DNA of 63,646 bases, filler included, from Psammoneis japonica (lineage: Eukaryota): the NCBI GenBank assembly GCA_008632985.1. It is 4 parts of 4 records of this genome, joined end to end, with 100 filler letters (N's around TTAATTAATTAA, not from the genome) between each part and the next. Parts side by side here need not be neighbours in the genome. Positions count along the whole stretch, not along the records: positions 1 to 28,013 come from QPGO01000407.1; 3 more parts are not named here. One strand, given 5' to 3'. Under the pieces are notes generated by a model, which was not told the origin of the DNA, ran no database searches, and worked only from the letters and a program-made list of their open reading frames with translations. Every line of letters starts with the position of its first letter. Position 1 is the first letter of the stretch. Shown one piece after another: positions 1 to 23,086 of the stretch. The translations under genes and the position numbers were made by a program.

Positions 1-2
1 TG

Positions 3-327
3 TCGTGCTTTTCCCGTGCTTTGTGAAAAACAGGCCACGACCTCAAGGAATCATTTTCAGTCATGACGGTTGACACTTTGCACACTTGCTTTTTGATGAC
101 AAACACGACGATGTCCACCGTTCCGCAAAATTCCATCATTGGAAAATGTTCACCATGGTGGCACTGCAGTGAAGTGTTGATTGAATTTCTGAAAATGGAG
201 TTTTGAAGTGTTCATGCACAGAACAGGGTTGCTTTGTGCAAAAGTCATCATGCAAAGTGTCAATGGTTTTGGGGAAAAATGATTCCTTGAGGTGTCGGTG
301 GAGCGGAGAAGCATGGCAGAAGCACGA
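3..327. repeat. Imperfect ~330-bp palindrome centred on CACTG|CAGTG (162-171)
   Basis: 41-57 is the exact reverse complement of 276-292 (17 bp) and 70-82 of 251-263 (13 bp), both centred at 166.5. 126-136 vs 195-205 (1 mismatch) and 3-10 vs 320-327 have centres 1-1.5 nt off. Confidence 0.85.
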
Positions 328-494
328 GAAAAAAATCCGCCCAAACCCTGATTTTTACAATTTTTTCTACGTAAAAATTCTGCGTGATTTTTGCACCAGT
401 GCACATGGCTCATCGACTTGAGGCAGAAAGCATTCCTTCATTTTTTGATTCCAGCTGGAATCTCCTGAAACTTCTCATGAGATCCATTGTTTTT

Positions 495-1337
495 TTAAAG
501 ACTGACTTTGCCGTCACTGTCATGATCAGAGAGGCTGTAGAATTCCAGACCTTTGCCATCAATCCAACTTTCGACAAAGAAGAAATCACCCGTGAGCAGC
601 AACTCAAACCTCTCCCAAATCATTCTGCTGTGGTCATCAATGTTTGGAGGTGCAATCAGATCATTTCCAAACTTGGCAGTCGATGCAGTCTTGACCAACA
701 TGCCATCATGTGGACTGACCTGCAGGTGGGTCCCAAACCTCACATTCTTGAAGTGGCAAGTCTCATCATTGCTGTCTCGCAAGTGTGCGACCTCCTTCTG
801 AGGGTTTCACAGCAAACCGAAGTCCTTCAAAGCAGCGACCATCTTCATGGTTGTCAAAGCTGTCACCTGGGTCCGTTGAAAGGCACCAGCCATCTCCTTG
901 ATTCCTGCCCCAACTGGCAATCTCTTTGGTGTCTTCATGATCCGTGGCCCCGTCAAAAACCTTTTGAGAGTGTTCAAAGCAAGCCAGGCTTGGTCAATGA
1001 AAAATGCATTGGGGCCTCCAATGGTCACATCCACATGAGTGATGTCATTTTTTAGGGTCTCCCAGTTGTTGCTGTCTCTTTCCATTTGAAGAGCCACGTG
1101 AGGGTGGTCATCAAGAGCACCACACCGGTGCTTCCAACCCAATGTGGCTGAACCCTTCAAAGAATCACCTTGATGATGGAATCGAGTGATGACCTCATCA
1201 TTCGATGCCGTGCAATCCTTTTTGATGGCTGTGTGGTGGCAATCAAAGGTGATTTTTGCATTTGCACTAAATGTTGCATCAAACCGGCATCTCTCGATGG
1301 AGAAGAGCCACCCCAGAGTTGAGATCATGACTCTCAT
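495..1337 (-). pseudogene. Degraded ORF of unknown function (transposon cargo)
   Basis: ORFs 807-1337 and 495-782 are in the same frame, separated by a stop, with protein-like composition. No recognisable motif. Confidence 0.3.
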
Positions 1338-3824
1338 TCATCATGGAGATCTGCGCAGAAGCAGCAGCAGCAGTTGATCGAAGGATGAGAAGGCCACTGA
1401 CAGGGAAACACAACAGTGCAAATTGACTCACCGAATCTTGTTCTTTGGCCTTCTTGTCAGTTTCAAGCTCTCCTCCCCTGGCGCAAAGGTTGCCAGCATG
1501 TGCTGCTGCCACCTGGTTGTTGAAAGAAAGCACAACAGTGGCGCAAAGCACACAGAAAACTTCTTTTTCAAGAGCATGTCTGTAGAAAGATTTTGTGTTT
1601 TCTTGCAGCAAATTTTTAAATTGTGAGTGCACATTGAGTGGAAGAATCATGTGTCTCATCTTTTGCTCGCAATCGTCAGGGAAACTGCCTGCTGGCAGCA
1701 GCATGTGTGCATGAGGAGTTCACGTGCAACGTCCCCTGGTGGTGCAGGGGAGGGACAGACATTGAGCGATGGTGGAATTGAGTCACACAGGTGGGAAAAG
1801 GGCTGGATTTTGAGTTGGGGGAAGATGGTTGAGATTGCAGTTTGGCAGTGCAGCAGGTCAATTGGTCAGTGAGTGATTTGGCAATTGCAAAGCTCAGGCT
1901 TTGAAGGCCAAATTGAGACAGAGTGGAAGAGTGGTGGGTTGGGCCGAAGCATTTGGCAGACATGGTTTGCCAGGCAGCGGTGGCAGCAGGGAGGACAGCA
2001 GATGGAGACAGCTGGGCATGTGCGCATGCAGCATGGGCAGCTGGGTGTTGAAAAGAGGACTCAGCAGTCCAGGGTGGAGCAGGTGGGGCAGGGATGGGGT
2101 GTGTCCTGTGTGCAGCACACTGCACTTGTGTGTTGCATGCATCGCAAGGTTTGCCCAGGCAGGTGTCCTGCATCTTGCCGTGCCGGGCTGTGCGGATCCT
2201 GTGCGCAGCTTTGCCGGCAAGCTGCATGATGCACAGATGGAAAAACTGCAGGTCGGGATTGATGTGATTGACGTCGACTCAGTGAGGTTAATGTTGAAGC
2301 AAGATGCCTCTGATGTGAGATGTGGTGAGCCTCTAAAGCTCACAATGAAGAAAACATTTTCTTTGCTCATTTGTGAATGCTTTGACACACTCTGACAAGA
2401 CCCGCCGGAGTGTGTCAAAACAAATGGCTGCTTTTCATTTCCCATTTTCATTGCGCCAATTGCATCACAACACACAAATGGTTGTTGATGTTGGGAGCAA
2501 AATTTCATTTGCCCTTGCACACATGTTCATTGTTGTGAACCTGTGTTGACTCACAAAGAATCAGATTTCTTTTTTTGTGTTGCACAAAGAGTGCTTTCAA
2601 GCTGTTGACAAAAGTTCTCATGTGTGGACACAATGTGCAAATGATTTCACAGACAAGCTGCCATGGCAGTGTGTGGTTGTTTTTGACAACTTTTTTGCTT
2701 TTGTGGCTGTGCAAACAGTGCCGATTGACAACATGAAGTGGATGTGATGTGTGCCATGCATGAAGGAAATGTGGAGTTGTGGTCATGGTGCATTTCAAAT
2801 GCTGTGACAGACCTGCTGCACTCCTCAGTTTGGTTTCAGAGTTGAGTGACCAAAAGCCAATGTGCAAGGTCCCTGAAACACTTTTGCATGACACTGGAGC
2901 AACCACAGCATGGACTGGCCCAGATTCAGCAGCAAGACTCAACCATCATTTTCATGTTGAACACAGACAGAACAGTGGGGTCAAAAAGGCTCTGGAAGAG
3001 GGCGCAAAATCTTTTTGCTTGAATGTTGATGAGATCTCTGTGCAAGTCTGCAACCACTGCACTGAACAAAGGAAAAATGGAGCCTGCAGACCAAGCAAAA
3101 TGTGTGACAGTTTCAACAGCAGTGTTTGTTTTTCCCCACAAGATGGAAGCAGCTGCTGCTGTGTGCATTCGTGTTCATTGTCATGTTGGATGTTGCTTTT
3201 GGGAGTTTGCTTCTAATTGTGGGAACAATTTCCTTGAGCATGAGCAAGGCTCTCAGCTGTTTGACACTGGAGTTCAGAGCAATTGTGCTTTGAAATTTGA
3301 CTGGCATGTGAGTCAATGAGATGTTGTCATTGTGCATGTCACCTGGCGCTGGAACATCCATCTTGTCAAGCCAAAGCTTGAGTGGCACACAAGCTGAGCA
3401 AAGCAATCTTGTGGCTCTGATGCTGGGCAAGCCTGCCCATCCTCAGGTTTGCAGCATCAGAGGGCTCGACATTGCAACAATGTGCAGATTCACACAGTGA
3501 CATTTTTACAATGTGTTGCAACAAATTGTTAAAATTCAGCTGTGACAAACTTGTGACCAGAGGTCCGTCCATCAAACATTGTTGACAATCTTTCAACAAA
3601 TTAGTTGTGCATTTTTCACCAGTTTCACACAACTAAAAAATTCACCTGATCACCACATGCCAACAAAACATCACAATTTTATGGCAGGAACACCTTCCAC
3701 TGTTGTGATTGTTGCCCATTGCGTTTGTGATGCCGCAACCCAACAATTTTCTGTCAACTGCCATTTTTGACCACAAACATTTGGTCGCTTTTATGTTGAA
3801 CAAAGCCATCAATGCATCTTCCTT

Positions 3825-5692
3825 CTAAGAGTCATCACTGTCATCTGCCTCTTCCAACAAGTCTCCCTCTTCCGACGAGTGTTCCTCTGCTTGCTGCTCT
3901 GTTCCGGCATTCGCAGCATCCTTCCTTCCTTCATCCTGCCTGTCATCTCCACTGTTCTTGTCGCTGCTGTCCAATGTGAGGCTGTTCATCATCTTTGCCT
4001 TTTCCAGACCCTCACTTGGGGCTTTCTTCTTCTTCTTCTCTCCTCCTGACTTGTCAAACTCGTTCTTCGTGACCTCTGCATGCCACCTGTCAAACTCCTT
4101 GCCATCCTTGGAGTTTTTGTCTTTCGTCACCTCTTTGTGGAACTCGTTGAAGCACGTGATTCCTTTCTCTCCCCAAGACTCGTGCTGCTTGTTTGGCTTT
4201 GTGCAGAGAGAGACAGGCACCTTTTTGCGTGGGTCCATTTCCTCACCCAATTCCTTTGCCGTCTCCTTTTTCTTTTGGCATGCCCACACACTCCAACAAT
4301 TTTCAATCACCAAGAGCACCAGAGCCTTGTCAGTGATTGCAGCCATTTCAGTCGCCTTGACCTCTCCTGTTTTGATGGTGCTGCTCCATGCCTTCTTGCT
4401 CTTGGTGTGACAGAGGATGTGATCATAGAACCACTTGTGTGCCTGCTTGTTCCTCCGTTTGCTGTTGGTTGTTTTCAACAGGCTAAATGCATCCCAAGTT
4501 GGCACACACGGGATTTCTTCATCTTGATTTGCACTTTTTCTCTTTCCTCTGGCACCCCTCTTCCTTGTGGCTGCCGCCTTGAGCCTCTTTTCTTTTTCCT
4601 TTCCCTCTTCTTGGGTGACAATGCCTGCAAAGACAAAGAATCGCCATCCCATTCTTTTTTGATGCGTGCACCTCTCAACTCACACACACGCATCACTTTG
4701 CTTGCAGGCCATTGCATCCTTGCTGATTTCTGAACACACGGTGTTTCTTTTGTTGTTAAGTTGCCTTTTTGCCGCCTTCCTTGCCCATTCCTCCCAAGCT
4801 CCTGACCAATTTGCAGTGTCCATGTTGCCACCAGCAATGTTCTTCTTGACAAACAGTGAGATGTTCCCATTGCTTGCCATTTCTGATGCACTTGCGAACT
4901 TAACTTGTGCAAAGAGTTCATTTCTAGCCACCTTCTCAACTTCATGTCTCATCCCCAATTCCTTTGCCGTCTCCTTTTTCTTTTGGCGTGCCCACACACT
5001 CCAACAAATTTCAATTGCCAAGAGAGCCAGAGCTTTGTCAGCGATTGCAGCCAGCTCAGTCGCCTTGACCTCTCCTGTTTTGACGCTGCTGCTCCATGCA
5101 TTCTCACTCTTGGTGTGACAGAGGATGTGGTCATAAAACCACTTGCACACCTGGTTGTTCCTGCGTTTGCTGTTGGTTGTTTTTGCCAGGCTCCTCTTCT
5201 TTTGAGATGCACGCACCTCTCAACTCACACACGTGCATCACTTTGCTTGCAGGCCATTGCATCCTTGCTGATTTCTGAACACACAGAGTTTCTTTTGTTG
5301 TCAAGTTGCCCATTTGCCGCCTTCCTCGTCCATTCCTCCCAAGCTCCTGACCAATTTGTGGTGTCCATGTTGCCACCAGCAATGTTCTTCTTGACAAACA
5401 GCAAGATGTTCCCATTGCTTGCCATTTCTGATGCACTTGCGAACTTGGCTTGTGCAAAGAGTTCATTTCTGGCCACCTTCTTGACTTCACGTCTCATTGC
5501 ATCATGTGCTGCCTGCACACCCATTTGCTTCAATGCTGCCTGAAGCCTTGGGCTCATGGCCGCGGGCTCTGTTGTCCTCCTCTTGTTTGCTGCTGGCTGC
5601 TCTCTAGACGACATCTTGCTCTTTGCACTACAACAATGAGTTGTTTGTGTGCCGTGGAGATCTGCAACTGTCCTTTGGGTCGTGTTGGACAA
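3825..5692 (-). pseudogene. Transposon accessory protein remnant with an internal duplication
   Basis: Motifs ITDKALVLLVIENCWSVW and ESWGEKGITCFNEF resemble the (T)xSDEAFxLLxxENxW / GWSxxGxxRFN family I recall next to diatom Plavaka-type transposases. Acidic C-terminal tail. Confidence 0.6.
4245..5497. repeat. Tandem duplication with deletion: A(4245-4477) X B(4660-4952) A'(4953-5184) B'(5205-5497)
   Basis: Nucleotide similarity between copies; the peptides WFYDHILCHTKS...KATE and NELFAQ.KFASASEMASNGN each appear twice. Confidence 0.9.
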
Positions 5693-6080
5693 CAGCCAGC
5701 CTTTCTTTTTTGCAAGTCATGGCATTTGTTCCTCTCAAACAATGAATGCATCATTGCAAGTGACATTGAAATTTGAAAATGTGTTCATGTGCAACAATGA
5801 ATTGCGAAACTTGCATTGTTGTTGTTGTTGTCATCGCATTTGAACGGAAATGATGTTCTGTTCATTGACGGCATTTGCAAAAGTTGATGTCCATTGTTGG
5901 ATCAAGACAACACAATCCAAATGCAAACATGTCATGCCCACAAGAATCATTCAAATCTGAAAGAGATTTCAATGTTTTCAATGCCATTTTTTGGGTCTTG
6001 TTCCACTTTCTCCCACCACAACAATGCCAGGATGATGAGTCTCAGTGAATGAAAACCGTCTCAATGTTGTTTGATTGACA

Positions 6081-9000
6081 ATGGAAGGGAATTCAATCCT
6101 CTGTCCTGGATGTGGCAAAAGCTTTGTGAGAATTGCTGTGCATTGGAGGTGTGAACCAAGGTGTTGCTCCACTGCCCAAGAGTTGCAAGCCAATCAAACA
6201 GCCCCTGACAACAGCATCACTCCATCTTCAATGGACGGGCCACCCAGTGAAAGTTGCAATGCTCCTTCAACTGGAGATTTTTTCAGTTCATCCTCTGACA
6301 ATGAAGAACCCTGTCTCCAGCGATTTGCTCATAGCAGGTTGGCACAATGCTCCACTGACAGCACCCGTCCTGGCAGCCCCTTGTTCCCATCTCCAGACAC
6401 ACTGCATGGCATGGATGAATTGTCGTCCATGTCATCCAATCACAGCATTGACAATGTTGTTGCCATGAACGATTTGGATCTTGGCAGTGGTCACTCCTTC
6501 TCTGCCTTGTTGGATGTGACAATGGAGGAATCTACACACCCAGATGACATTTCTGATGATCGACTGGGTAAAAGGTGCATTGAACCCGCAGGAGATGCCT
6601 TGGCTTCCACTCCCTCTTTGACCAATCTTGATGGGGCATGTGCAGAGTTGTGCAAGAAGCTTGTGCGGCATCCCCCTGGAATTGTGTGATTGCATTGTTG
6701 AGTTCATCAAGCGGCACACTGGGAACAAGACCATCAAGCTTGGTGCAATTCTTCCATGTAGAAAAGAGTTGATGCACACCTTAACAAGGCACTTCCCTCT
6801 GCCACCCAGCGAGTCTACACCTGCAATGCCAGAGACAACCAGCTGCAAAACCGTTTTGCCACAATGTGTGTCAGTGCCCAGGTGGAGTTTCGTTGCAGTC
6901 TGGGAGCAGTTTTTACTTGACCCTCACCTGTGGCACAGCAGAGAGAACATGGAAAATCCAGACAATCCTTTTGAAAAGTGTGAGGCCAAGGGACCGGACA
7001 ACAAGTGTGTTTTGGCTGGAGAGTGGCACAGGCGTGCCTGCAAAGAGCAGATCACAGATCCAGAGAAAGAATTTCTTGAGTGCAACATCATTTGTGTCAA
7101 CAAAATGGGTCGGACAGTGGGGATGGGATCCCATTGTGGTGAACCCGCAATCATGACCTCCGCTCATGCAGCCTTTGACAAATGGTCTGACAAGAGCATC
7201 TGGAAACCTCTTGGATGTCTTCCCGATTTGGAAAAGATGTCATCCTCTGCTGCAAAGAATCTTTCCAGCAACCAAAAGGCGGAGAAGGGACGCTCTTTAC
7301 GAGACCACCACAACTGACTGCACGTCATTTTAGAGCCACTTCTGGACACAATGAGGTGCGGTGGCATGTGCACATGTGTGCGCCGAGGCGACAAGATTTG
7401 CTTCCTCAAGGTCGTCCCAATTGTTTGTCTCACAATGGGCAATGCAAAAAGCAGAGACTGTCTTGTGGGTCATTGTGGTGGTCACAATTGCCTTCTTCGT
7501 TGCTGCCATTTCTGCATGACAGGATTCCATGGCCTGGGCGACCCATGGATCAAGTGTGACTTCATCCGTGGCTGTGATCTCCTTGAAGTCACAAAAGGTG
7601 CAAACGACAACAACAGAGTGGCAGAAGAACACAAGCACTGGTTGGGCATTTTGAAGCACATGAAGCAACACAATGCAAACACCAATTGTCTTTTGGAGGC
7701 TGATTTTGGCAAACAACCATGTGGCGCAACCCTTGCCACTGCCAGCAACATGATGCATCTTTTTGAGAACGGGACCTTGAAAAGAGTCATTGTTGCCTTT
7801 GTAGACAGCATGACACCTGTTGTGGCTGCTCAGGTGGATGACCCAGTTGAAAGGATCTTTGGCAATCATGGATCAACATGCAAGGCCATGTTCTTGCAAA
7901 CAAACTTCAAAGGTGGGGCTGCGTCACTCACCTTTCTCAACTTGCATCACTGGGCGGGCATGGCTTTTGTGTTCCATCTCATCCCACTCACAAACAAGGG
8001 ATGCAATGTGTGTGAGCCATGCTTCCTTGAACAAGATGCAGATGAGACGTTTGTTCCCAAGGACAGAGACATGCCAAAAGTTAGATTTGAAAAGTTCTGC
8101 AAGCCACCAGGCTGCCTGGATTTGGATGAGGACAGCAGTGAGGAGGAGGAAGAGGCCGGTGATGAAGAAGACGATGAAGGGGGTGAGAATGACAATGAGG
8201 ATGAGGAAGGAAACCAAAAGAAAAAATGCAAGGGAAAACAACTTGACTGCAGTGCATGGCAGTTCATGCAGTTGCTGGAGAATCGTCTTGCATTTCATGC
8301 ATGATGCAGACTCGGCAACCCACCCATCACTCGCAAAACTCCAAGACGGCTGATGCAAAAGACAAACAAGAAAATCCACCTTCTCATTGCCAGGACAGTT
8401 CATTTTGTTCCAAGAAGTGATTGTTGCGGATGGAAGCTTCAGAAGCTGCACAAAACACTCCATCTTGCTGTGTTTCTTCACTGCTGTTGCCCCATGCAAT
8501 GAACTTTGACGCAGGGTTGGGTGAATGCCTCCTGAAGGATTTTTTCAAGCTTCCCTTGTCAACCGCTCAACAACGGAGCCCAGACACCTTCTTAAAGCAG
8601 GTGGTGGTGCGGATGGAGGATCAAATGTGGCTGAACCTTGCCATCTCTGCTGACAGCTGGTTCTTGCCTAAAACAAAACAAACGGAAAAGAGCTCCAATG
8701 TTGTGGAAAACCACAAGCTGGGAGGAAGCACATTTGCTCTTGCTTGCAGGGAAGCAATGGGTGCTGTGAGATGGGAATGGAACGGCACACAGAGTCAATG
8801 CCAGGTTCATCCTGTGTTGCTTGATTTCATGTCAGAGAAATGGGAGGAATGTGTGGGTCAAGGCAATGATGATTCATCACTCTTGTGCAGGACAGAGTTT
8901 TGCAACAAGAACGGAAAGGATGCACACAGTGCACACCCAGACTGCAACAGCAAAGGACCATGGTGCGACTTCACCTGCATCACCTTTGGCACCCGGCAAG

Positions 9001-9392
9001 GCAAACAACAATTTCCCTCCCGTTTGCTGTGTTTTTTCGAACAAGAGGATGCAGGATTGCTTTTTGCGGTGGTCCATCCATGCACCTGTCAAACCGACCT
9101 GAGGAGCATGAGGCAACGTTTGCAACACACAAACCTGGTTGGTTGCTGGCCGTTAGATCAAAAGAGAAACCACTGGCTTTCATCTCCCGAGAAAACAGTC
9201 TTCTCACCTCATCTGCGTGTTGTCCCCATGGGGGCTGTGGGAGACAACACAATGGCACATGAAGAAGAACCAGGAGCAGTGGAAACACAAGAAAAAACGA
9301 GACATGTTTGGGCTGTGCAAGACAGAAGGGCCATTTGGTCAGATCTTTTTAATGTGACCAACAACATTGTTCACGAGACTCACGCACATTAA
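6081..9392 (+). pseudogene. Plavaka-like DDE transposase, broken by stops and frameshifts
   Basis: Ordered motifs: FLLDPHLW, GEWH (GxWY), IICVNKM (IIYxDKT), EPAIMT, WKPLGCLPDL (WRPLGYxPDL), GNAKSRD.LVG, MMHLFENG, FLQTNFKGG, NFDAGLGE..LKDFFK, AHPDCNSKGPWCD (AHPxYxxxGPWYD). Confidence 0.8.
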
Positions 9393-9411
9393 AGGCATTG
9401 ACGATTGTCAT

Positions 9412-10474
9412 CTACGATTTCCTTCCAAATGCCAGGAACTTAACATTTTCCGCGTTGTCAAGTGTGGCTCGGCAGATGTGCAACAGATCGGCCTCAACAG
9501 TTTCTGGTGTGCGCGTGAGGAGATCTTGCTCAGACAATCCCAGGCAAGCATCTTCCTGATCCAACGGTTTCCCCAACCACAGTTCCTGTTTGTTGCGGCC
9601 AATGAGGTTGCTTGCTTGGAAAATGCTGAAACTTTGTTTTGCCTGATCCGCGTCCATGGTGTAAAGTTGGAACGCAGCATGCAGTTCCATCCAGTGTCTC
9701 CAAAGTTGGCTCAACATGGCCTGAGCAAAAGGAATCACTGTCAATGCGTCCTCCACCTTTTTAGAGAGTGCGCTTTGCAGTTCAATGAGATTTTGGAAGA
9801 ACTGACTGCTTCCAAACCAAGCATCATGCCACTCTCCATCTGGCATCCAGTGGCAGTCCAACATGATTTGATTGAAACCGTGATCCTTGAAGTCAACCAC
9901 CTTGCTAAAGTGATCCTTGACTCAATGCACAAAATCATGAGAACATGCATTGCAGTTAAGATGAAGGTCTTTGTGACCATCTTGGATCGAAACAGTGCAA
10001 ACGCAACTGTCATTGTCGGCACTGAATTCCTCAAATGCCATTGTGCGTGCCTCATCTCTTTGGTGTTGATCAGAGGCAACCATTGCTGCCCCCTCAGCTG
10101 AGCACAGTTCAGCACATGACAGATTCCTTGCATTGACCGGATGCATCATTGCCAACCAAAGCACATTTTTTGGGCACATAGATTCACGTTGGAGCAGAAA
10201 GGTGTGGTCAGTCTAAGATGGACATCGCACAACGAACAAGACGGCGACTTGCTCCATGACTTGGTCGCCCTCCAGACAGTCACTAATTTGCACGAACAGG
10301 ACTTTTCGTTGGCATTGACTGCATTTGAAACATCAGTGGTGTTGTCGTTGACAAAAGCCCTTGCATCACCATCTCCATCACTGTCCATTGACGACTCAAC
10401 AGATGCTTCCAAAGAGTTTCCAATCCAGTTGGAAGCCAACCACAACACATCCACTGCGGCTGCCTTCCTGTTTT
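9412..10474 (-). pseudogene. Degraded ORF fragments, probably the 3' part of the cargo gene split by the LINE
   Basis: Minus-strand ORFs 9412-9900, 9922-10179 and 10146-10454. The frame of 14449-15804 rejoins here once the LINE is removed. Confidence 0.35.
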
Positions 10475-13400
10475 AATCGCAATCAATTTAAAACACATCA
10501 GGACAATGACAATCAACGAGAGGCAAAACAATGCCTGTGGATTCTCTTCATCGCCTTGCCGTTGGAGTTGCGATGCAGGCTCCCAAGTGCATGTTCCAAA
10601 TTTCTTGATCATTGATTGACCATCAGAGAACAACAAAAAAATCCAAACCCAATTTAAAGTGCCATCACACCTTTGCCCAGCAACACCAGCACCGGCCAAT
10701 CCACACCTCCGGTGCACCCTACGAGGGATGCAGCAGAAGTTGATGCAATCAGCCTGAATCAGCATCCCTCTGAGGGGGCGCCTGTCAGAAATGACTGGTG
10801 ACAGTGTGTGTGCTGCGAAGCGCCAGGCGCTTTGCTTCCTTCAAACTGTCTTTGAGTCTGGGCCGTGCCATTGAAATCCAATTTTGCACTCGTGTTGTTG
10901 AAAATGTACGGTGCTCTTTGACTGAGTCCAGCAAAACTCCACGGTCTTTGGCCAGAAATTCCTGTCTTTTGTTGCATGTTGTGGTCAATTCGGCCTCCAC
11001 TTGTCATTGCTGAGATGACTGCCAAGTGGCAGCGTCATGGCCATGCACATGTTGATTGTGCTCTTCCCACAAACCCCACCATTGTTTCCATGTGTGTGAG
11101 CCTGTCAGGACTGCCCAGTTTGGAGACTGTCTGTTTTCCTCCTGACAGCGCCGGAGAACACCCGAGTCACACAGATGTCCCGACTGAAGAACATTCCAAA
11201 GAGTGGAAAACCATCCACCAAACACTTGTTGCCATCCCACACTGGACTGTGTGCGCCACAGAGCTCTGCAGTGGCAATCCAGGTCCTCCGGATGTTGCAT
11301 TTCTCCCTTGAACCATGCTTCAATTGAGTCAAGTAAAAAATCTTGCAGTGCAGGCATGGTGTCGATCCCACCACAATGCTGCCGCAGGCCTTGCAAGAAT
11401 TTTCTATGCCAGGGTTCATTGTGCAGACATTGCAGAATGTGATCCCTGTCTTCCATTGGGTGTTCACAGAGCAAACAATGGTGAGGGCAGACTGGGTTGC
11501 AACAATGGGTCATCTTGTTTGTCGGAAGCAGATCATGTGCAAGTTTGAACGTTCCAACATTGCGTTTGGAGCGTCGTTTGATCAGAACTGCGTGAGCATC
11601 CCAACCAATAAAGTCAATCACTTCCGGTCCCCACTGGTTCCGTTCTGAGATGTGTTCCAACAGTTGCTGGGCGGTGGCGGCATGTCTGGCTTGACGTTTG
11701 TGGCTGGAAGTCAGCGCACCATCCTGCAGACTCAAGCAAGAATGACAATGTGGTGGAGGTGGGACCACAGAGGCATCACCTTGGTGATGACCTTGACATG
11801 CACCTGCTGGCCGGTCAGCTCGCATGTTCACTCTTGCATTTGGTGGAAGTGAGTGAACTGGGGCGTTTCGATCTTGATGTCCCTTGACCCACTGAACTGA
11901 TGTCGCGGATGAGACTAGACAGGATGTGTCGGGCGTCTCCAGTGGCATGCGAGTGTGCACAATCTCATTGATCACATCCCAATCTGCAGGGAGAGCATTG
12001 GCTCTGTGATGTTGAATGTGGAGTTCTCTGACTTCTTTAGAATTTTCCTCCAGCGATGGTGCAGGGAGGGAGCTGGTGAGCTGATCGAGGCAATTCACTA
12101 AAGCTCTGTTGTCGCAGTGAACTGTTGCATCCGGGAGCTTAGAAAGACGGCAGTGTTCCACAAATCAGCAAAGGAATCAGATGACAGAGAGAATCCTGCA
12201 TGCCTCCGCTCTGCACGATGATGGTCATCTGCCAAAAACGGGTCCCGCACAATCGACCAACGGGGTGCCGTCATGAGCAATCGTCCAACCAAAGGTCGCG
12301 CCTTCTTTGACAGATCCATCACTCCCTGCACATAACTTCAAGGAAGAGAAGTGCAGGAGAAGTTCATCTGACAGTTCCTGCAGTTCAAGAGCATCAAACA
12401 ATGATGCCTCCCATTCAGGTGACAAGTCTGATGCACTTGGAATTGCGTGGCATCCAAGCATGTCTCTGAAATTCTGATGATGTCTGCTTGAATTTCCGCA
12501 GCTGCCTGTGTGCAATCATTGAAGTCTCCACCACGTTTGTCAAACTGACAGCCATTGGCATTAAATGCGTGCAATCGGGTGTGTGTCGGAGCTTTGGGGA
12601 GGAGGGGATCTCCGATTGGTTCATTTGACAACAAGCTAGAATGGTCAATGGCACTGGAGGGAAGAGAGTGACTTCTGCCTGACAACAACTGGCTCCACTG
12701 CTGAGCAGCGGGATTGCTTGTAACCAAAGGGGCATCACCCCTCATTTGGAGGCCATGCTTCCTTGAAGGAAGGCTGGGAAAGAAGACTCCTGTCTGCGTC
12801 ATGAGGAAAAGGCAGGTGAGATGGCTGGGCCTGCCTCACAGAAAATCCGAATTGTCAGCCTCAGTCATGGATGTGTCATCGGGAGGGTGGTGAGCGGAAG
12901 AGCCTGCTGGGACCAAAGTGGCTGGTTTCTTACGTTGTGGAGAAGATGTTGCACCTGGGATTGCTGAAGCAAATGTTGCCTGAGTCATTGTCTGCATCTG
13001 GGAAGCAAGCGCAGTTTGCAATTGGGAGGCTGTCACATTTTGCAACTGAGTTGAAAGTGCAGAAAGAGATTCTTGGTGTTTCTTTTCCAGGTCAGCGAAC
13101 CACTTCTCTTGTTCCTGCTGATTCTTGATGACCGGCTGTTGCAGCTCCGCCATTTCAGCAGACTGGTTGGACATTTCTGAAATGGGAAGGGCTCCAGGCA
13201 TGACCGCTCCTGTGACATTTTGCAGAACTTGGGGGAACAGGTGGGAAAACTGCCATGCACTCCAACACTTTTTGGGGCCGGAGGAGCTGCAGAAGCAGAG
13301 GGCAAGGGTGGAATGGTGGAGCCCATTGGAGAGATGTCCAAAACATCAAGGGACACCCAACTCTGAATGCTTGCTGAAGAAATGGACTGGACTGTGTTGG

Positions 13401-14497
13401 ACATGTCATCATCAATTCCAGGAATCAGCGGCTTCAGCTGACCACTCGGGATCTCTGTGTCATTCTGGAAGATGCTCGGAGACATGACGTTTTGCTGGTT
13501 GAAAGCATTCCTTGTCAACCAAAATGTTGCACCGCTGGGTGGCTGAAGTCTTCTTGGAGGGCACCATGTCCAACACACCTTTGGCCTTCTTGATCGTGTC
13601 GGTCAGGTAGAAGGAGACAGCTCCCGTGCAATGGTGAAGAGGGACAACGTGCGTCTTGGCACTGTTTTTGCATTGCTTTCGCACAGCTTCATTGAAAGCT
13701 TCCAGTTGAGAACAACACCAATGGGACAAGACAATGGAGAGGGGATGTTCTTTCAAGACTTCCAACAGGGCGTGAATCACATCTTTAGCTCACTCTTGTG
13801 GAGTCTCAACAGCACAAAAGTTAGTGTGCAAGGATGGGTCTTGAGGCAAAGAGGCAGACTGCACTGTCAACCAGAAGGGGATTTGGGAGCAACTGCGTGG
13901 AGGGAGAAGAGCCATCAATGGCTTTTGGGCTAAATCGGCTGGACAGTGCTTCAGCAAAAGATCAACCAGCAGGGCTGCTCAGGAGAGATCCGCTGCGGTT
14001 TCATCCCATTTGCGGCGGTGCACACAAATGCCATTGTCTTTCAGGACCTCATCAACAAAGGGAATGTTCCTGATTTCTGCAATGGACAGAGACATGCGGA
14101 TGCTGTGAGCAACAACAAACGTGGGAGAGTGACGGTGCACACCACCGACATGGTGGAGGAGTGAGTCCAGAAGTCCACTCGACGACGTTGATTTCGGGAA
14201 TTTTTAAACCGCAATTCGAAATGATCGACGTCTGGTTCATCAGTGGGTCTTGGGAGGCTTTCTGTTGCAGGGTGTTGAGGATTGTGGTGTGACCCATGGC
14301 CAACACTGTTGATGCATTGTCATCAGAGGAGGTGAGTTTGAAGCAAATGGCAATTTCCTTTAATGCCAAACTGTCCGGTTTTCCTGATCCAGTCCTCATT
14401 GGAGTGGATGGAGATGAGTCCTTGTCGGGTGATGGATCTGGCTGAGTGTCACCAGTGGGGCCAACCTGCGGCAGCGGAGGGATCATCATGGTGACGA
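10475..14497 (-). mobile_element. Ambal-like non-LTR retrotransposon (ORF1, APE N-terminus, RNase H, CCHC tail) with the RT domain deleted
   Basis: APE start RLHAFNANG...ISETCLD (about 12450-12580). RNase H motifs AGSDGSVK..ATFGW, HCDN, QWVKGHQD, NMRADRPA. Zinc knuckle CLLC....EDRDHILQC; QSSVGWQQVFGG; W..LWEEHN..VHG. Candidate TSD GTTTT at 10470-10474 and 14498-14502. Confidence 0.85.
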
Positions 14498-17043
14498 GTT
14501 TTCAGCACAAAATTCGTGTAGATTTCTGCGTGGGATGTGTCAATGTGCACTTCTGCAGAAAAGCAACCATCAGAGAACAACAGAAAAAGATGCTGCCTGC
14601 AACAAAAGACATTGCAGACACCCATTTTCTCCCAAGCTGCGCTGCCATCGCAGAGCAAACACTCTGGATCATTCTTGCCGCATTGGACGATGTCAAAATC
14701 TTCCAACATCTGTCCCAAAAGTGCATCCTGCTGATCCTTGGGGACCTTCATGTCATCCATCTGCTTTGCAGCCCCCAACTTTGCTGCGGGATGCACCAGA
14801 TTGCGCAAATCAGGGTGAGGCTTGATTCCGACACCGTGTGGTGACAACAGCTGAATGGTGGTCATGAGCTGGAACTCTGTGCAGTCTGCACCTTCACTTT
14901 CCCTTGTTGAAACCACGCTTTTGAACTTGTCCTCAATTGCCTCATGATGAAAAGATGACTTTCCAGCATTTTCGTTGATCCAGTCAATTGCATCCACTGC
15001 ACCAGTGACAATCAAGCCCATCAAGCCATTTAGTTTCATGCCACACTTGGACACAAACACATCTTCGAAGTGCAGACCTGGAGTCCTCCAACGTTGGTCA
15101 TTGCGGTCACCCACAATGCTGACGAATGTCCTTGTGGCTTCTTGGAAATGATGGAGGACCCAATCACCACCCTCAAAAGGACAGGTTTGTCCATTGGTGT
15201 TGCACAACAAGCAGTGAAAACGGGAGAATCCAGTCTGCCAACCACCAACCACAGAGTGACGAATGCAATCGTAAACACCGGCAAAATGGACATTTTTGAT
15301 CAGTGCTGTTGCACCAAGTGAAAAATTTAAATCACATGCAATGACAAATGGATGACGGATCCTTGGAATGACAACAGCCGGGTGCTTTCCCTTCTCTGAT
15401 GGCTCAGCATTTTTTCCAATGTCCTCGTTGACCCAGGAATGGTGTGGGTCAAGGAAAAAATCTTCAATGTTCAAGTGACTTGGCTGGCCAGAGGGAGGAC
15501 AACAAGGGCCGCGGCATTGCAACATTTCTGCAGCATGGGAAAGATCAAGTTTTGCAAAATGACCTTTGACGCGCAATTGAAAGTTGGTGCAACCATGCAA
15601 CTGTTCAACATGATTGCCAGCTTTTGCTTGTCCAGCAGGGATGAGCTTGAGTGACCAGGACCAACCAACAGAGTCTCGAAGTGCAGTGCAAAGAGCACTT
15701 GTCTTGGTGCATCCCTCCTTGTCACAATCTTCATTGTCCCTGTGGAGCTTGGTTTTCCGTGTCTCAACTCTTGGGGCAGAGGATGATGTGCACTTTGCTT
15801 GCATTTCAACGTTCTCATGTCACAAGTGCTCTGCTCCAATCATTTCTCGAAGTGAAGCTGCAAAAAGACTGTCGCGTGTGGGGTCGTTGAAGGAGCGCAT
15901 TTGCCTCAAAGCAACCGCATGGATTTCATCCTCACAGACTTGCATGGCATCCAACATTGAAGCTGTCATCAACTGAACTTTTTTTGGAAGGTTGGGCCAA
16001 TCGTCCTTTCCGTAGATTGCACCAGGCTTGTGTGTCGGTCCCACAAGTGCCAAGTCACTGTCAGTGACATCGCAGTTCTGGCCGCAACAACCAAACTGGA
16101 TCCGACAGCACAGCTGGCATGCTGCTCCATCACATTTCTCATTTGCCTCTCCGTGTTCCAAAATGGCATGGAGGATCGACGCAACACTAAATCTCAATCC
16201 AAAGAAGCATTTCTGAAACATCTTGTCTGTGCAATGAAGATGGGTGATTGCCTCTGAAATGTGAGAGGATGACTGGGTGGGGCAGGCAATTGCAACCACG
16301 GATTCAGTCGTTGGATTCTTGGGAGCCTGGTCATTTTCAAAACCATGCAGAAACTTTCGAAGATCATTTGCCAAGTAAAAATCAGAGCCACTGTGAAACA
16401 GCTGGTGCCAGACATGATTCCCCTTGAAGCCACCAGAAATGGGAGTTTCCTCAAACACAACACCAAATCTCAATCCAAAGAAGAGTTTCTGAAACATCTT
16501 GTCTGTGTGATGAAGATGGGTGATCACCTCTGAAATGTGAGAGGATGACTGGGTGGGGCAGGCAATTGTAACCACGGATTCAGTCATTGGATTCTTGGGA
16601 GCCTGGCCATTTTCAAAACCATGCAGAAACTTTCGAAGATCATTTGCCAAGTAAAAATCAGAGCCACTGTGAAACAGCTGGTGCTGGACATGATTCCCCT
16701 TGAAGCCACCGGAAATGGGAGTTTCCTCGAACACAACAAGGTGAGAATGCTGTTTCTGCACATCACCAGGAATCGCAAGTGGAGAGGGCTCCGGAAAAAC
16801 GTCTTTGAGCTCCTCCTTTGTGAAATTTTCAGGCAAGGGAGGAGGCGAGGAAGCAATCACACTGAGCAACGGCCACAATTTGCGAGAATCAGCAACATGT
16901 TCCTCTAGAGTTGGAACGTCTTGGAGCAACTGCATTTCACCTGGAGATGTGTCAACAGTCACACCATTGTTTGGCACACTGAGACTGGTGCCAGTGGAGC
17001 AGAGGGAGTCTGAGGAGGAGGAGAAGCAGAGGAACAAGGACAA
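14498..17043 (-). pseudogene. Large degraded cargo ORF of unknown function, with an HxD motif and a 92-aa internal duplication
   Basis: ORFs 15820-17043 and 14449-15804 are in one frame, separated by a single TGA. Globular-looking sequence with Tyr largely absent. Confidence 0.55.
16186..16737. repeat. 276-bp (92-codon) in-frame tandem duplication
   Basis: VVFEETPISGGFKGNHV...FFGLRF occurs twice; offset 276 nt (16293 vs 16569). Confidence 0.92.
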
Positions 17044-17199
17044 GGTAAAAAGAACAATGAGAAACCAAAGGAGTCATGACATTGTGTTGCAATCTTGCCT
17101 TTCTGAAATTTTCGTTTCTTGGCATTTTTCATTGCAGAGGGAACTGCATTTCCAACCTTTTTGGGATTGCACTGACTGGCAAAGTTGTGGAGACGGGCT

Positions 17200-18193
17200 T
17201 GCCACATTGATTTGAAACAATCATGTCCACATTTGCTTTTGCCAGAATTGTTGGCAGCGGAAACAACATCGTCATTTTGCACACACTTCAAGAGCTGAGC
17301 ATTGACATGACGAGCATGCATTTGTTCACTTTCGACATCCATCATCACCATCCTGAGAGGCTCTTCCCAGGAGGTGTCATGAGTGCAGAAGAGCGTCTTG
17401 ACACAAACAGGGAACAAGACAGGGTCTTTGTCCTTGGTTGTCTCGTGGTGACCAAGTGCAAGAAAATTCTCCAAAAAGTTGATGTGAACAGAAGCCTCAT
17501 TGCAGGTGCCAAACAATGTGTGGAGCCAGCAGTCGCAATCATGATTTTTTTCCGGGCCGTGTGGTAAATTCTTGTCACAGAGAATCAAGAAACCAATGTG
17601 AAGATGTTGCGTGCATTGTAGAACCTTCGCTTCAAAACTCTTCAACTTGAGGTGGTTCACCAGTGGCTTGCCCGTCGGGTCGCACAATCCAGGATCATTG
17701 ATCATCTTGCACAACACATTTGTCTTTGCCATCATGTTTGTCATCATGTCTTTTGTTTTGCCTTTGCACCAACAACTTTCACATCCTCTGTTTTGGGGGC
17801 TTGGCAACACTCCAAGGCGTGAGGATGTTTGGCGCTCTGGCTGGAACAACTCCATCCTTTTGCAGACAGGAAGTGCAACAAACTTTTGTGCCCAAGTTCC
17901 TTGGCAATGATGCGGTTCACAGCCACAAGCTCTACAAAAAAATGAGGTCTGCCCTTTGACTTTTGCCAAACATGGGTGAACGCAACCCAGTTCAGAGATG
18001 GCTCACAAGTGCAATCGTGGTGGAACCGCACCTTTGATTTGAGCATCTTGATTGTCACTTTCACACGGGGTCGCTCCTTGCTGTCAACAACACCAAAGCC
18101 ATTGGCAAACAAAGATTCAAACATGGCCTCATCAAGGTCAGAATCATTGTTGTCTTGTGACAGAGCGGCAACTGATTGGCTTTGTGGTGCCAT
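17200..18193 (-). pseudogene. Degraded ORF of unknown function (transposon cargo)
   Basis: Overlapping frameshifted ORFs 17744-18193 and 16959-17969 with protein-like, Tyr-free sequence. Confidence 0.35.
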
Positions 18194-18527
18194 GGTGCTG
18201 TTCGCAGTAAAAAAAAGGGTTTGTGCAGGATGTGGCAGACTTTTGCGTGGGCGGTTTTACATGCGCACCTGGCAGGAAGGGTCAATCCCACCAGGTGCAC
18301 CGGCATGGGGCAACAGTGGGTGATGGGATCAGTGGTGCCAAAATTGTGAAGAGTGAAGCCAGAGAAAGATGTTTGTGCTGGAAACAGAGGTTGATTTCTG
18401 TGCACACACTTTTGCAGGTAAAATTTGTGTGAGAGGCTTCAACTGACGCACGCGACGATCACAGCGAAAAATCCGGCAATGCGTGCAGCATCAAAAGAAC
18501 TCTGAAGATTGATCCAAGAAAAAACAG

Positions 18528-19060
18528 GTGACACAAGAACAAAAAACACACAACAACAAACAAAGGATGAACGAAACAACAAAGGTGCCGAAAAGAGAGA
18601 AGGAGGTCGATGCAACTGCGGCGGAGAAGGCAGAGACAGTGGCTGCGAAGACAACGACAAAGGAAAAAGGGCTGGGAAAGGAGAAAAAGACAAAGGCAAA
18701 AGGGTCCAGAAAGGAGGAAAACACAATGATGCCACAGCCTTGGGAGGGTGATGTTCGGGAGATTCTGCCGATGACGGGTGTCCGCCAAGAAGCAAGAGGT
18801 CATTTGTTGGCTTTTCTGTTTGGAGACGAAGACGAAAGTGACCTGGCAGTGGTGGCCCTGCAGGACTTGGAGAGGTGAGGCATGTTGTTCTAAATGGAAG
18901 AAACGGAGGAGGGAGAGGAAAAATGGGATTGATTGGATGAACATGCAGTGCATGCTTTGCATGATGATGATGGCAGAAAGTGCAAATGCAACAATCGGCA
19001 AATTGTTCATTGCTGCATGTCCTTGTGACAACGGCAGAGATGTAAAATGTAGAAGATGAG
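18528..19060 (+). pseudogene. Lys/Glu-rich degraded ORF
   Basis: ORF 18528-18878 is charged and low-complexity and continues past stops. Confidence 0.3.
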
Positions 19061-19949
19061 AGCTTTCAGATATGAAGATTAGGAGTTTTTTTATTGTCAC
19101 ACAAAAAGCGGAAACTGTCATGTGGAGCAAGAACTTTTTAACATGTGGACATGGGTGGAACACCAAATGCACAGATGCCACAATGTCGAGCCCTCTGATG
19201 AGACTGTGAGCTGCCAATGTTTGAGATGAGTGAGGCACTCAATCAAAAGCATTGGTTGCATTGCACAGGGGGCTAGATTTGAGGTTTTCTGTTGAGAAAA
19301 TAAAAAAATTGGGCTGCCATGTCCAACCGGTGGGTCAGATTTCCTTTTGCAAAAACACGAAGTGCACGGTGTAATTTAAAAACAGCGCGAGCTCCGAACT
19401 CCAGATTTCCTTGTCCCTCCACCCTCCACATTCAACATCGCAAATCGCACACCGCACACCGCCCGGTATTTCTCGACCATGACACTTCACACTCAACACG
19501 CCACGCACTCTGCACTTTCCGACGTGTGGTGTCCCTTTTTTCACAGTTGATTCCAAAGTGTGGAGAAGATACACTAGGAGGACGACACGATACACATTCC
19601 AAAGTTGAGTTTAATTGAGAAATTTGGGCCCGCATGAAATTCTATCGGCACTCATCACTGGCATCTGGCATTCGTCGTGGTTGTCTTTCGACGGAGGTGT
19701 TTGCTTTCGAAGAACTTGTAGTAGCGACGCAAACCGTTGCTGATGCGGCTCGAGACGTCACCAGGGATGTCTTGACTTTGGAGGATATCGAAAGGGCCAT
19801 TTTGTATAAATCAAGTCTGAGCAAAACGATTGACGAGGCATGCACCCACCGAACCGGGAAATTCCATTTAACTCGATTCCTTGGAAATGCTCAAACTACT
19901 TGGAGCTTGTAACGTTGGACGAATAATGTGGCTACTTTGTAAAAGTGAC

Positions 19950-20885
19950 AACCCAAATGTCGGACTAAAAAAAAAAAGAATACTCGGCTTAACACCGAGT
20001 GACAACTACCAACGAGTATGCAAAACGGCATATGTACTCAAGGTCCAGCACAAGCGTGACATACTGCAATACAACAAATAGCGGGCGTATTGATGGTGGT
20101 GGCTGTGTTAAAATATACACGCTAGACCGAGTCAACGACAAATACTTTAATGTCAACATCGGACGAAAATGAGGCTAAGGAATGTCAAACAGCGAACCTC
20201 CCCATTTAGCAACTCCTGCAGGAATTGGAGGAACGAGGAATCCTTTACGAACTTACCGCGACACGTGCAGAACTCGAGACTCTGTTACATCAAAACAGAC
20301 AAGCCACTTCTTCTCATCAGACTAACAAAAAAAGTACCAATCATGGAGATCTCAGATGAATTAGATTACCGGGGTATCAAATATCCTTCAACCGCTTCCC
20401 GTCCCGAGCTGGAGGCACTCCTAAAAAAGAAGGACACTGCGGAGCAATCAATACTACCCGTGGCGCCCGTACGTAACGGCGCCGAGCAAAATTCAAAACC
20501 GACATTAACGATAACATCGCCTTCAACTGCTGGATGGAACGGGATGAATGAGGTATTGTGTACCTACAAACCGCAACGCTTGCCATGTTGGAAGATCTTG
20601 TGCGGCAGTCACGTGGAAACGCGCAGCTGGGACCAATCCCAGCAAAAACACAACCATGACATACTCAACATCACAGCCAGAATCCCAGAGATTGACGAGC
20701 AGCTCCGAGTGTTGTGCTGGAGATGTTGACAGAAAACAAAAAGGTGCAAGATGCGCGGTTGGCGGCCGCAAAAGAAAAAAAAAAACAATACTCGGCTCAA
20801 CGCCAAGTAACAATGGCCAAAATAAAAGAGCAGGCAAAACGGCATATATACGCGCTCTAGGTCCAGTACAAGCGAACAAGTAACT
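19950..20885 (+). repeat. Two diverged direct copies (about 19965-20065 and 20770-20880), possibly J-domain-like remnants
   Basis: Shared A-run + TACTCGGCT.AAC.CC.AGT.ACAA...GCAAAACGGCATAT...AGGTCCAG.ACAAGCG; peptides ILGLTPS...KTAY and ILGSTPS...KTAY. Confidence 0.55.
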
Positions 20886-20929
20886 GAAGTACAGGACGAA
20901 AAAGCAATTATTCTTCAAAAGATGAATTA

Positions 20930-21160
20930 AATCCCGTTGTCATGGGTCTGCTAAATTCGTACAAGGACAAGCAGTTTCTTTACATGCTGGTCAATCTATT
21001 TCAAGGTGGAGAGCTGTCTAGCATTTTTCGTACACGTGAATTTGACGGCGCTAAGCTGCATGCATCGTCAAGGTATTATTCATCGCGACTTGAAAAGGAA
21101 AATTATCGTGCTGGATAGTGATAGTTATTGTGCTTTGGTCGATCTTGCGTTGGGTGAGTA
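20930..21160 (+). pseudogene. AGC (PKG/PKA-like) protein kinase fragment
   Basis: LLNSYKDKQFLYMLVNLFQGGEL, then a frameshift to MHRQGIIHRDLKRKIIVLDSDSYCALVDL. The PEN and DFG motifs are degenerate and the rest of the domain is absent. Confidence 0.8.
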
Positions 21161-22739: not shown

Positions 22740-23086
22740 GGTGTTTTTGAAAAGGATGGTATAATAATCTGTTGTTGTTTTGTAATTCTTTCCTTCTTCC
22801 TAATCTTCCAATCTTGTCGATAATAATAATAGCGACAGCGACAGGGATTTTTTTGAGGATTTTCGAATTTTTCTGTGGTCGTCGGTGATCTGTCTGTCCT
22901 TCGTCATGTCATTTCAAAAGTATACGTGTTTGAATAACCCAATGATCACATTTTGCGGCGCATGGAATTTTTGGTTTGGCGAAGCCCACGATGATGTGAA
23001 TGTTGTGTCGGATTTCGAGTCAGTCAGATCCGCTACGCAAGTCAAAAACGGAAGCCTGAAGCTGTCAACATGATGTCGACACAGCC

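Follow-up and report, generated by a model that had tools for sequence, protein, structure and literature searches.

Repeat blocks and genes in the window

We analyzed a stretch of 63,646 nucleotides from the genome of the diatom Psammoneis japonica (GenBank assembly GCA_008632985.1; four parts of four records joined by filler, hereafter the window), in which three blocks of decayed repeats have lost nearly all TpA dinucleotides while the genes beside them have not. Repeat block 1 (1-19040) is a composite of nested decayed mobile elements. Repeat block 2 (35900-40000) could not be assigned to an element type, and repeat block 3 (56020-63646) extends to the window end and has assembly gaps inside it. 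The 31 kb between the blocks were used as the genic control. They consist of one region at 19400-35600, with Peptidase_S28 and DUF3684 genes, and a second at 40300-55300, both with ordinary dinucleotide content.

Dinucleotide observed/expected (o/e) ratios were counted in sliding 1-kb windows, and block totals were counted separately. Every 1-kb window starting between 1 and 18501 had a TpA o/e of 0.01 to 0.18, compared to 0.28 to 0.81 for those starting between 19001 and 35001. Blocks 1, 2, and 3 contain 93, 17, and 19 TA (o/e 0.07, 0.06, and 0.04), whereas the genic control contains 1153 (o/e 0.53). At a host-like ratio, about 676, 152, and 242 TA would be expected in the three blocks (binomial P of 3e-179, 3e-45, and 3e-79, respectively). 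The block edges lie at about 19040, 35900, 40000, and 56020. The right edge of block 1 is located within about 150 bp, since a 472-bp TA-free gap reaches to 18891 and five TA follow at 19043-19092. Noncoding DNA and satellites in the blocks are as TpA-depleted as the coding parts.

The other dinucleotides composed of A and T were not depleted. Compared to the control, the o/e in the blocks was 1.23 to 1.35 versus 1.20 for AA, 0.75 to 0.87 versus 0.92 for AT, and 1.25 to 1.36 versus 1.17 for TT. TG and CA were in clear excess, with 1.64 to 1.74 versus 1.16 for TG and 1.53 to 1.73 versus 1.20 for CA (1.64 and 1.69 in block 1). AG was 0.97, 1.16, and 0.84 in blocks 1, 2, and 3 versus 0.91 in the control, and TC, at 1.05, 0.95, and 1.07 versus 1.16, was not depleted. 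The GC content of the blocks was 0.47 to 0.49. CpG was at 1.00 in the control, 0.39 in block 1, 0.11 in block 2 (the strongest loss of the three), and 0.62 in block 3 (a mild loss). These counts agree with the initial annotation of this DNA, which had described TpA as nearly absent from decayed transposon blocks, AA, AT, and TT as plentiful, TG and CA as in excess, and TpA in nearby host genes as ordinary. The two stretches that it gave as free of TA also hold: the first TA after the start of the window is at 356 (1-355 was claimed), and none occurs between 7331 and 7802 (7333-7801 was claimed).

Mobile elements and satellites in the blocks

Block 1 contains the remnant of a Plavaka (CACTA-like) transposase at 6664-9350 on the plus strand. 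It lies in two frames with in-frame TGA stops, has no Tyr, and lacks the first ~230 residues of full-length relatives. A HMMER search with the read-through frame 6622-8304 retrieved 481 relatives. Among six of these tested against PF18759 (Plavaka), three passed the Pfam threshold, two were at or just below it, and one had no match. In block 3, a Ty1/copia polyprotein remnant (gag, protease, and integrase; 59770-61246, plus strand) has shifted frames and ends at a tandem array, and all 9 of its consensus Tyr are replaced. A second Copia gag fragment is located at 56199-56648. The Copia frame 60644-61249 has 17 relatives with 38 to 56% identity, 12 of which carry the Ty1/copia reverse transcriptase domain PF07727.

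A Tyr-free open reading frame (ORF) of 386 amino acids at 11004-12164 on the minus strand has a zf-RVT match with an E value of 0.014 and an Atlas score of 0.93 to RNase_H/zf-RVT clusters. This ORF is probably the RNase H/zf-RVT tail of a non-long terminal repeat (LTR) retrotransposon, an assignment that we use as a lead only. No relatives of near length were found for it (P0123), and it therefore contributes no polarized evidence. At an E value of ≤0.001, none of the 11 long block 1 ORFs tested had a Pfam match, and at E values up to 5, the transposable element ORFs gave only weak matches (zf-RVT at 0.014 and rve at 0.0041). The initial annotation had counted three unrelated transposable element classes among those affected. 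This stands for Plavaka and Copia, in both of which conserved Tyr columns now read Cys or His (see below); for the long interspersed nuclear element (LINE) class, there are the weak zf-RVT match and the Atlas lead, with no relatives.

Block 1 also contains internal direct repeats at 4246-5497 (4652-4952 versus 5197-5497, 92%; 4246-4484 versus 4954-5192, 89%) and a tandem duplication of about 276 bp at 16179-16738, the copies of which are 94.7% alike. In block 3, tandem arrays are found at 56530-57158 and 61248-61486. The TpA depletion thus extends over at least one DNA transposon, one LTR retrotransposon, and satellite DNA.

The short-period arrays at 56530-57158, 61248-61486, 57646-57763, and 62132-62255 are 80 to 90% identical to one another and free of TpA. 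These four arrays flank the Copia remnant on both sides and adjoin assembly gaps. A 412-amino-acid ORF over one array (56485-57723, plus strand) gave a weak match to an Argonaute N domain (E value of 0.0003, under the family cutoff), which in a repeat so poor in stops is most likely due to chance.

The scarcity of stops in the blocks is general. TGA accounts for 1500 of 1702 stop triplets in the blocks, compared to 1210 of 2219 in the genes, and of the 45 ORFs in the window with 200 or more amino acids, 25 lie in the blocks, where many of them overlap one another and do not represent genes. Long frames stay open in dead elements because TAA and TAG have been erased and the change of TA to TG or CA makes no in-frame stop. 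This is a warning for annotation, as profile-based detection of transposable elements fails in such blocks and many long spurious ORFs appear instead.

Assembly support

Six independently built Logan contigs from sequencing run X1 cover 9786 bases of block 1 without a single difference. The agreement of these contigs excludes an artifact of the assembler, although not one of the sequencing platform. Runs X2 and X3, from the same public sample, give next to no cover of block 1. Paralogous contigs at least 80% alike over block 1 reach a summed depth of 3000 to 4000, compared to about 30 for unique contigs, indicating that the blocks are high-copy repeats. An assembly or sequencing artifact could be suspected, given the N gaps in the window and the repetitive nature of the blocks. 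We nevertheless put its probability close to nil: besides the six agreeing contigs, the pattern is sequence specific, it stops at element edges, and homology to two transposable element families is still readable within it.

One X1 contig (depth of 176) links position 3452 directly to 19304 and bypasses 15851 bases. The junction is consistent with nested insertions of about 15.8 kb having interrupted an older repeat or, alternatively, with a copy or haplotype that lacks these insertions.

Loss of tyrosine and direction of change

The Plavaka and LINE ORFs were initially described as lacking Tyr, and there are indeed none in their 561, 323, and 386 residues. In contrast, Tyr amounts to some 2 to 4% in relatives of the two families; it makes up at least 1% of residues in 148 of 150 Plavaka relatives and 3.1 to 4.4% in the 17 Copia relatives; the window copies of Copia have none. 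The closest Plavaka relative, P0127, is about 59% identical to the window copy. Among 16 aligned Tyr of P0127, none is kept; 8 are Cys (TGY, where Y is a pyrimidine), 4 are His (CAY), 3 are Phe, and 1 is Asn. Ile is kept at only 5 of 19 positions (4 read ATG and 3 read ACA), Val has become GCA five times, and Leu has become CCA twice. TGY, CAY, ATG, ACA, GCA, and CCA are each one TpA transition away from TAY, ATA, GTA, or CTA. As controls, Phe was kept at 28 of 31 positions and Trp at 9 of 10. Arg codons read CAA, TGC, CAC, and TGG, as produced by CpG decay.

Conserved columns gave the same picture. In query-anchored phmmer alignments of Plavaka, none of 8 conserved Tyr columns is kept (4 Cys, 2 His, 1 Arg, and 1 Glu), compared to 164 of 234 other conserved columns (Fisher P of 9e-5). 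In Copia, none of 9 is kept (4 His, 4 Cys, and 1 Arg as CGC), compared to 195 of 249 others (Fisher P of 2e-6). Together, the conserved Tyr columns of both families are kept in 0 of 17 cases and read Cys in 8, His in 6, Arg in 2, and Glu in 1. Over all three sets (16 P0127 positions, 8 Plavaka columns, and 9 Copia columns, with some Plavaka positions counted twice), 26 of 33 Tyr positions read Cys or His and none is kept. Individual motifs were located as well, with PLGCLPD at 7207, GEWH at 7018, GPWCD at 8955, and PCSPWQN at 61010. The Tyr-bearing forms proposed for them, PLGY, GxWY, GPWYD, and PYSPWQN, were confirmed in relatives, the last in 13 of the 15 Copia relatives having the motif; PCSPWQN, however, lies outside 1-19320, the interval to which the initial annotation had assigned the pattern. 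Two Copia relatives with normal Tyr content, P0290 and P0293, have PHSPWQN in place of PYSPWQN, the same change of Tyr to His at a single site.

A polarized, context-specific substitution spectrum, which had been suggested as a check, was built with stand-ins for the ancestor, a related protein in the case of Plavaka and a consensus of the relatives in the case of Copia. Replacements explained by one unambiguous nucleotide change were kept (n = 163), and 37 ambiguous and 85 multistep replacements were set aside. A>G changes numbered 37, of which 27 (73%) followed T and only 3 followed A, and T>C changes numbered 25, of which 19 (76%) preceded A. In block 1 as a whole, T stands before 43% of all G, and A stands after 43% of all C, so both values are real enrichments. 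A:T>G:C changes were thus concentrated at TpA (46 of 62). G>A changes (32, with 21 after C) and C>T changes (12, with 6 before G) fell at CpG in 27 of 44 cases. Two processes are visible in the spectrum derived from these alignments, TpA>TpG/CpA and CpG>TpG/CpA.

The context of these changes bears on mechanisms that bias repair or copying, namely, polymerase eta errors (WA>WG, where W is A or T), GC-biased gene conversion, and ADAR-like RNA editing followed by reverse transcription. Each of them yields A:T>G:C, and ADAR and polymerase eta favor a 5' T or U. However, targeting of WA is at odds with the AA ratios of 1.23 to 1.35 versus 1.20, with the AG ratios of 0.97, 1.16, and 0.84 versus 0.91, and with the 3 of 37 A>G changes that follow A. 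AT and TT are kept, which argues against a context-free conversion of weak to strong pairs, and a DNA transposon and satellite arrays are as hard hit as the retroelement, which argues against an RNA intermediate. We give explanations of this kind very little credence. Polymerase eta, which the initial annotation had listed as a candidate, fits poorly because AA shows no depletion and AG no consistent rise. ADAR-type editing fixed by retrotransposition fits poorly as well, since the depletion is not restricted to elements that pass through RNA and affects Plavaka and the arrays like Copia.

Ordinary TpA in relatives and superimposed CpG decay in the blocks

A scan of metagenome contigs with motifs still present in the window copy yielded 15 loci encoding Plavaka relatives. 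In all 15, the in-gene TpA o/e was 0.42 to 0.66, at the same G+C content as the window. One environmental Plavaka locus (L015:244-1938) has a CpG o/e of 0.21, with TG at 1.70 and CA at 1.48, and a TpA o/e of 0.54. Its low CpG combined with ordinary TpA indicates that CpG decay alone does not lower TpA.

For a mass balance, each block was compared with the genic control, with differences expressed per 1000 dinucleotides. In block 1, TA changed by -32.2 and CG by -32.9 (TA+CG, -65.0), against +61.1 for TG+CA. The corresponding values were -32.9 and -49.9 (-82.8) against +69.0 in block 2 and -34.4 and -18.1 (-52.5) against +56.3 in block 3. In each block, the TG/CA surplus matches the summed loss of TA and CG, and it needs both as sources. 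CpG accounts for about half of the combined deficit in block 1, three-fifths in block 2, and one-third in block 3. Since the TpA loss is equal across the blocks and the CpG loss varies nearly threefold, the two losses are independent.

Deamination of 5-methylcytosine in CpG-methylated transposons is comparable in that CpG decay is present in the same blocks (o/e 0.11 to 0.62). However, it cannot remove TpA, and block 3 combines a CpG o/e of 0.62 with a TpA o/e of 0.04. With CpG ratios of 0.39, 0.11, and 0.62 and 27 of 44 G:C>A:T changes at CpG, CpG decay co-occurs in the blocks and does not explain the loss of TpA.

Internal duplicates and flanking bases

Four internal repeat pairs (1093 bp) were compared site by site. 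We counted 20 positions with CA in one copy and TG in the other (CA/TG doubles), 15 single differences between CG and TG or CA, and 4 between TA and TG or CA. Differences between the copies at 4246-5497 are largely of these kinds, and in the tandem duplication at 16179-16738, 9 of 11 difference events are CG or TA versus TG/CA, or CA versus TG. A CA/TG double indicates that an ancestral dinucleotide decayed separately in each copy. CpG decay alone, with a CpG survival of at least 0.39, gives at most ~0.39 doubles per single, or about 6 predicted versus 20 observed. The excess points to a second, nearly exhausted source of doubles, TpA, and to a process that acted after duplication. Between the window and paralogous contigs, CA/TG doubles made up 5 of 33 events among the differences listed (40 of 1060), a set too small and too selective to yield a spectrum.

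The TpA that survive have a marked flank preference. With strands merged, ATAT occurs 0 times in the blocks and 90 times in the host, and ATAC/GTAT occurs 0 and 196 times, respectively. The corresponding counts were 1 and 73 for GTAC, 6 and 164 for ATAA/TTAT, 7 and 122 for ATAG/CTAT, 17 and 149 for CTAC/GTAG, 24 and 144 for GTAA/TTAC, 10 and 59 for CTAG, 34 and 85 for CTAA/TTAG, and 30 and 71 for TTAA. Where both strands read TAY, the sites have disappeared; where only one strand does, they remain at 4 to 17% of the host level; and where both read TAR (R, a purine), they remain at 17 to 43%. This pattern indicates that the target is RTA or, equally, TAY. Because TpA is its own complement, RTA cannot be told from TAY in the sequence, nor A>G following T from T>C preceding A. 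The products TG and CA are nearly equal in number in block 1 (2027 versus 1933) and interspersed. No strand-coordinated tracts of TG or CA were detected in blocks 1, 2, and 3 (runs test z of -0.5, -0.2, and -0.2), a negative result that says little at saturation.

These data can also be set against the idea that the elements are natively TpA-poor, the families having evolved such a composition or arrived with it (an escape from a TA-reading nuclease or from the mutator itself would be one reason), with no mutation in place. Whole-looking TpA-free elements do exist. Two Plavaka proteins with full-length open frames, P0170 (1290 amino acids) and P0198 (1200 amino acids), have 1 Tyr each, and the paralogous contigs of the present genome are mostly TpA-poor too, among the differences listed (40 of 1060). 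However, Tyr at motif positions conserved in 50 to 89% of relatives was replaced by Cys or His and not by conservative residues, and the window copies carry stops and frameshifts. Noncoding DNA and satellites are equally depleted, internal duplicates have CA versus TG at the same site, and the depletion is common to unrelated families and ends at the block edges. Native TpA poverty is thus hardly more credible than the polymerase and editing biases considered above.

P0170 and P0198, which come from other public assemblies, are 39% identical to each other and have His, Cys, or Phe at conserved Tyr columns. P0198 represents a cluster of 8 near-identical proteins. Their existence indicates that the same footprint, or a TpA-free lifestyle, occurs elsewhere with frames still open.

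A probable mutational process at TpA

We consider it likely that TpA in repeat or foreign chromatin, and only there, is turned into TpG and CpA by a mutational process acting at the level of DNA, a judgment that applies to the process and not to an enzyme. The T:A pair of the TpA step would be converted to C:G, leaving TpG on one strand and CpA on the other. The process would have run nearly to completion in all three blocks, acting on resident copies after insertion and duplication, in coding, noncoding, and satellite DNA alike, and would have stopped within about 150 bp of neighboring genes. It would prefer RTA (TAY on the other strand) and partly spare TTAA, CTAA/TTAG, and CTAG. Ordinary CpG>TpG/CpA decay is superimposed on it and varies independently between blocks.

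The core of the initial annotation, a mutator that converts TpA to TpG/CpA in repeats of unrelated element classes, is thus supported by the replacement of Tyr by Cys and His, the polarized spectrum, the 15 of 15 loci with ordinary TpA, and the agreement of the contigs. It had also named three outcomes that would contradict it: intact active copies and consensus sequences as free of TpA and Tyr as the decayed ones, no excess of A>G at TpA, and raw reads at variance with the assembly. None of the three occurred.

Several observations weigh against this interpretation. The single-step spectrum (n = 163) includes 57 transversions, and its 62 A:T>G:C changes include 16 away from TpA. The stand-in proteins are 51 to 60% identical to the window copies and are not DNA of the same family, so some of the inferred changes are on the relatives' branches. 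CA/TG doubles can also derive from ancestral CpG. Among the 40 of 1060 contig differences listed, those of the CpG type (11) outnumber those of the TpA type (4). The confirming contigs are all from one sample, probably the one used for assembling the window, and are not independent support. With no strand-coordinated tracts left, episodes of deamination on a single strand are not recognizable. The evidence here is a footprint.

Comparison with known systems

The closest known case is the chlorarachniophyte Bigelowiella natans. A preprint (Mettrop et al., bioRxiv 10.64898/2026.01.13.699255) describes mutation-accumulation lines in which two viral regions integrated in the genome acquired 231 mutations; of these, 230 were A>G or T>C, all of them at TpA. 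The integrated DNA is of giant-virus and virophage origin. The mutations arose at about 6e-7 per site per generation in only some lines, roughly 1000-fold above background in living lines. The same text reports that TpA-poor genes are enriched in Pfam families of the transposable element type, defines the footprint by clustered 1-kb windows with a Rho TpA of ≤0.43 and a Rho CpA+TpG of ≥1.52, and proposes an ADAT2-like adenine deaminase.

Depletion, direction, context, and confinement are direct observations in our window, and by analogy, the process behind them may well be the one that is live in B. natans. As far as the accessible preprint text goes, the target dinucleotide and the products are the same (TpA>TpG/CpA), the process is confined to foreign or repeat DNA with ordinary host sequence next to it, and the window blocks pass the published cutoffs (Rho TpA of 0.04 to 0.07; TG and CA each 1.53 to 1.74). 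The two cases also differ. The host here is a diatom (a stramenopile) and there a rhizarian. Transposons and satellites are hit here, compared to viral inserts there, and depletion is near saturation here (0.04 to 0.07), compared to 0.45 in the nucleocytoplasmic large DNA virus region of B. natans. CpG decay is superimposed here, and an RTA/TAY flank preference is found; the accessible preprint text does not mention CpG and has no analysis of flanks. Finally, mutation is live in B. natans, whereas only a footprint is found here.

The initial annotation had taken the process to be undescribed, which no longer holds since the appearance of this preprint in 2026. In the literature searched, which does not cover most subscription journals, TpA-directed hypermutation was not found for diatoms, nor anywhere beyond the B. 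natans preprint, the accessible text of which does not mention diatoms. The window thus represents a second lineage for a barely known process, with transposon and satellite targets, saturation, and a flank rule.

Fungal repeat-induced point mutation (RIP) resembles the pattern in that dense transition mutations are limited to repeats, destroy mobile elements, and end where the elements end. However, RIP converts CpA to TpA and raises both TpA and AT content, whereas TpA is at 0.04 to 0.07 here with a GC content of 0.47 to 0.49. No strand-coordinated tracts are present in the window blocks, a further difference from RIP. The signature of RIP, raised TpA with lowered CpA and TpG, was not found (CA and TG are at 1.53 to 1.74), and RIP was rejected. 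In the accessible part of a Rhizoctonia paper (PMC7884421), TpA is used only in RIP indices.

Candidate chemistries

As to chemistry, we tentatively rank first, at somewhat below an even chance, an enzyme of the TadA/ADAT2 type or another nucleic acid deaminase that would be recruited to silenced chromatin and deaminate the adenine of 5'-TA(Y). TadA/ADAT2 and the base editors derived from TadA likewise act on an A that follows a 5' T (or U) and turn it into a base that is read as G, and the natural UAC site of TadA would fit TAY. However, the natural substrates of these enzymes are tRNA loops, and we know of no natural enzyme that edits chromosomal double-stranded DNA region by region.

The same footprint could be left by chemistry on thymine. 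A TET/JBP-type dioxygenase would oxidize the T of TpA in silenced repeats to 5-hydroxymethyluracil (5hmU) and then to 5-formyluracil, which would mispair with G and result in T>C. We regard this as a serious rival, though an improbable one. 5-Formyluracil does miscode towards G, whereas 5hmU itself pairs normally with A. The equal and interspersed products in block 1 (2027 TG and 1933 CA; runs test z of -0.5) do not allow the strand or the base to be assigned, which leaves room for thymine as the target. In dinoflagellates, according to the accessible part of PMC11572971, a TET/JBP homolog makes 5hmU that is enriched on repeats and helps to silence transposable elements, and older work is cited there for the replacement of T preferentially in TA and TC. 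This is a repeat-targeted base modification in another lineage of the stramenopile-alveolate-rhizarian (SAR) group with a reported preference for the T of TA (and TC). It differs in being an epigenetic mark for which that text reports no mutational footprint. The preference for TC in dinoflagellates is not matched here, where TC is at 1.05, 0.95, and 1.07 versus 1.16, and evidence of 5hmU in diatoms or chlorarachniophytes was not seen.

Returning to the process as a whole, a broader proposal is that a natural base editor of double-stranded DNA, old and guided by chromatin, is common to diatoms and chlorarachniophytes. In the DNA of mobile elements and viruses, such an editor would replace T:A by C:G at RTA/TAY by means of a dedicated adenine deaminase or thymine oxidase and would kill elements by missense changes without stop codons. 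Some lineages, such as those of P0170 and P0198, might have answered by living without TpA. We think that this proposal is rather unlikely.

Apart from RIP and CpG decay, mutation-based genome defenses are, to our knowledge, known mainly as cytosine deamination. For an A:T-to-G:C defense acting at one dinucleotide, the single prior report is the 2026 chlorarachniophyte preprint, which gives no enzyme. The diatom blocks indicate that the process is peculiar neither to one alga nor to viral inserts, and it may be widespread in the SAR group. The flank preference, with RTA/TAY hit and TTAA and CTAA spared, is a fingerprint with which the published de novo mutations, as well as candidate enzymes, can be compared. 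Genes common to the lineages that bear the footprint offer a comparative genomics route to the gene, and a naturally occurring editor of chromosomal A:T pairs would be of interest for the engineering of base editors.

Other features of the genic regions

Two genic segments in the second control region, at 42246-42952 and 44855-45560, are 69.5% identical over 754 bp and have ordinary TpA, an apparent local gene duplication that has diverged. The same region contains an unbroken ORF of 1217 amino acids at 47824-51477 on the minus strand, for which no Pfam match was found at an E value of ≤0.001. The best named relatives of the Peptidase_S28 protein in the first control region are from the diatoms Amphora, Cyclotella, Mayamaea, and Seminavis, with at most 58% identity.

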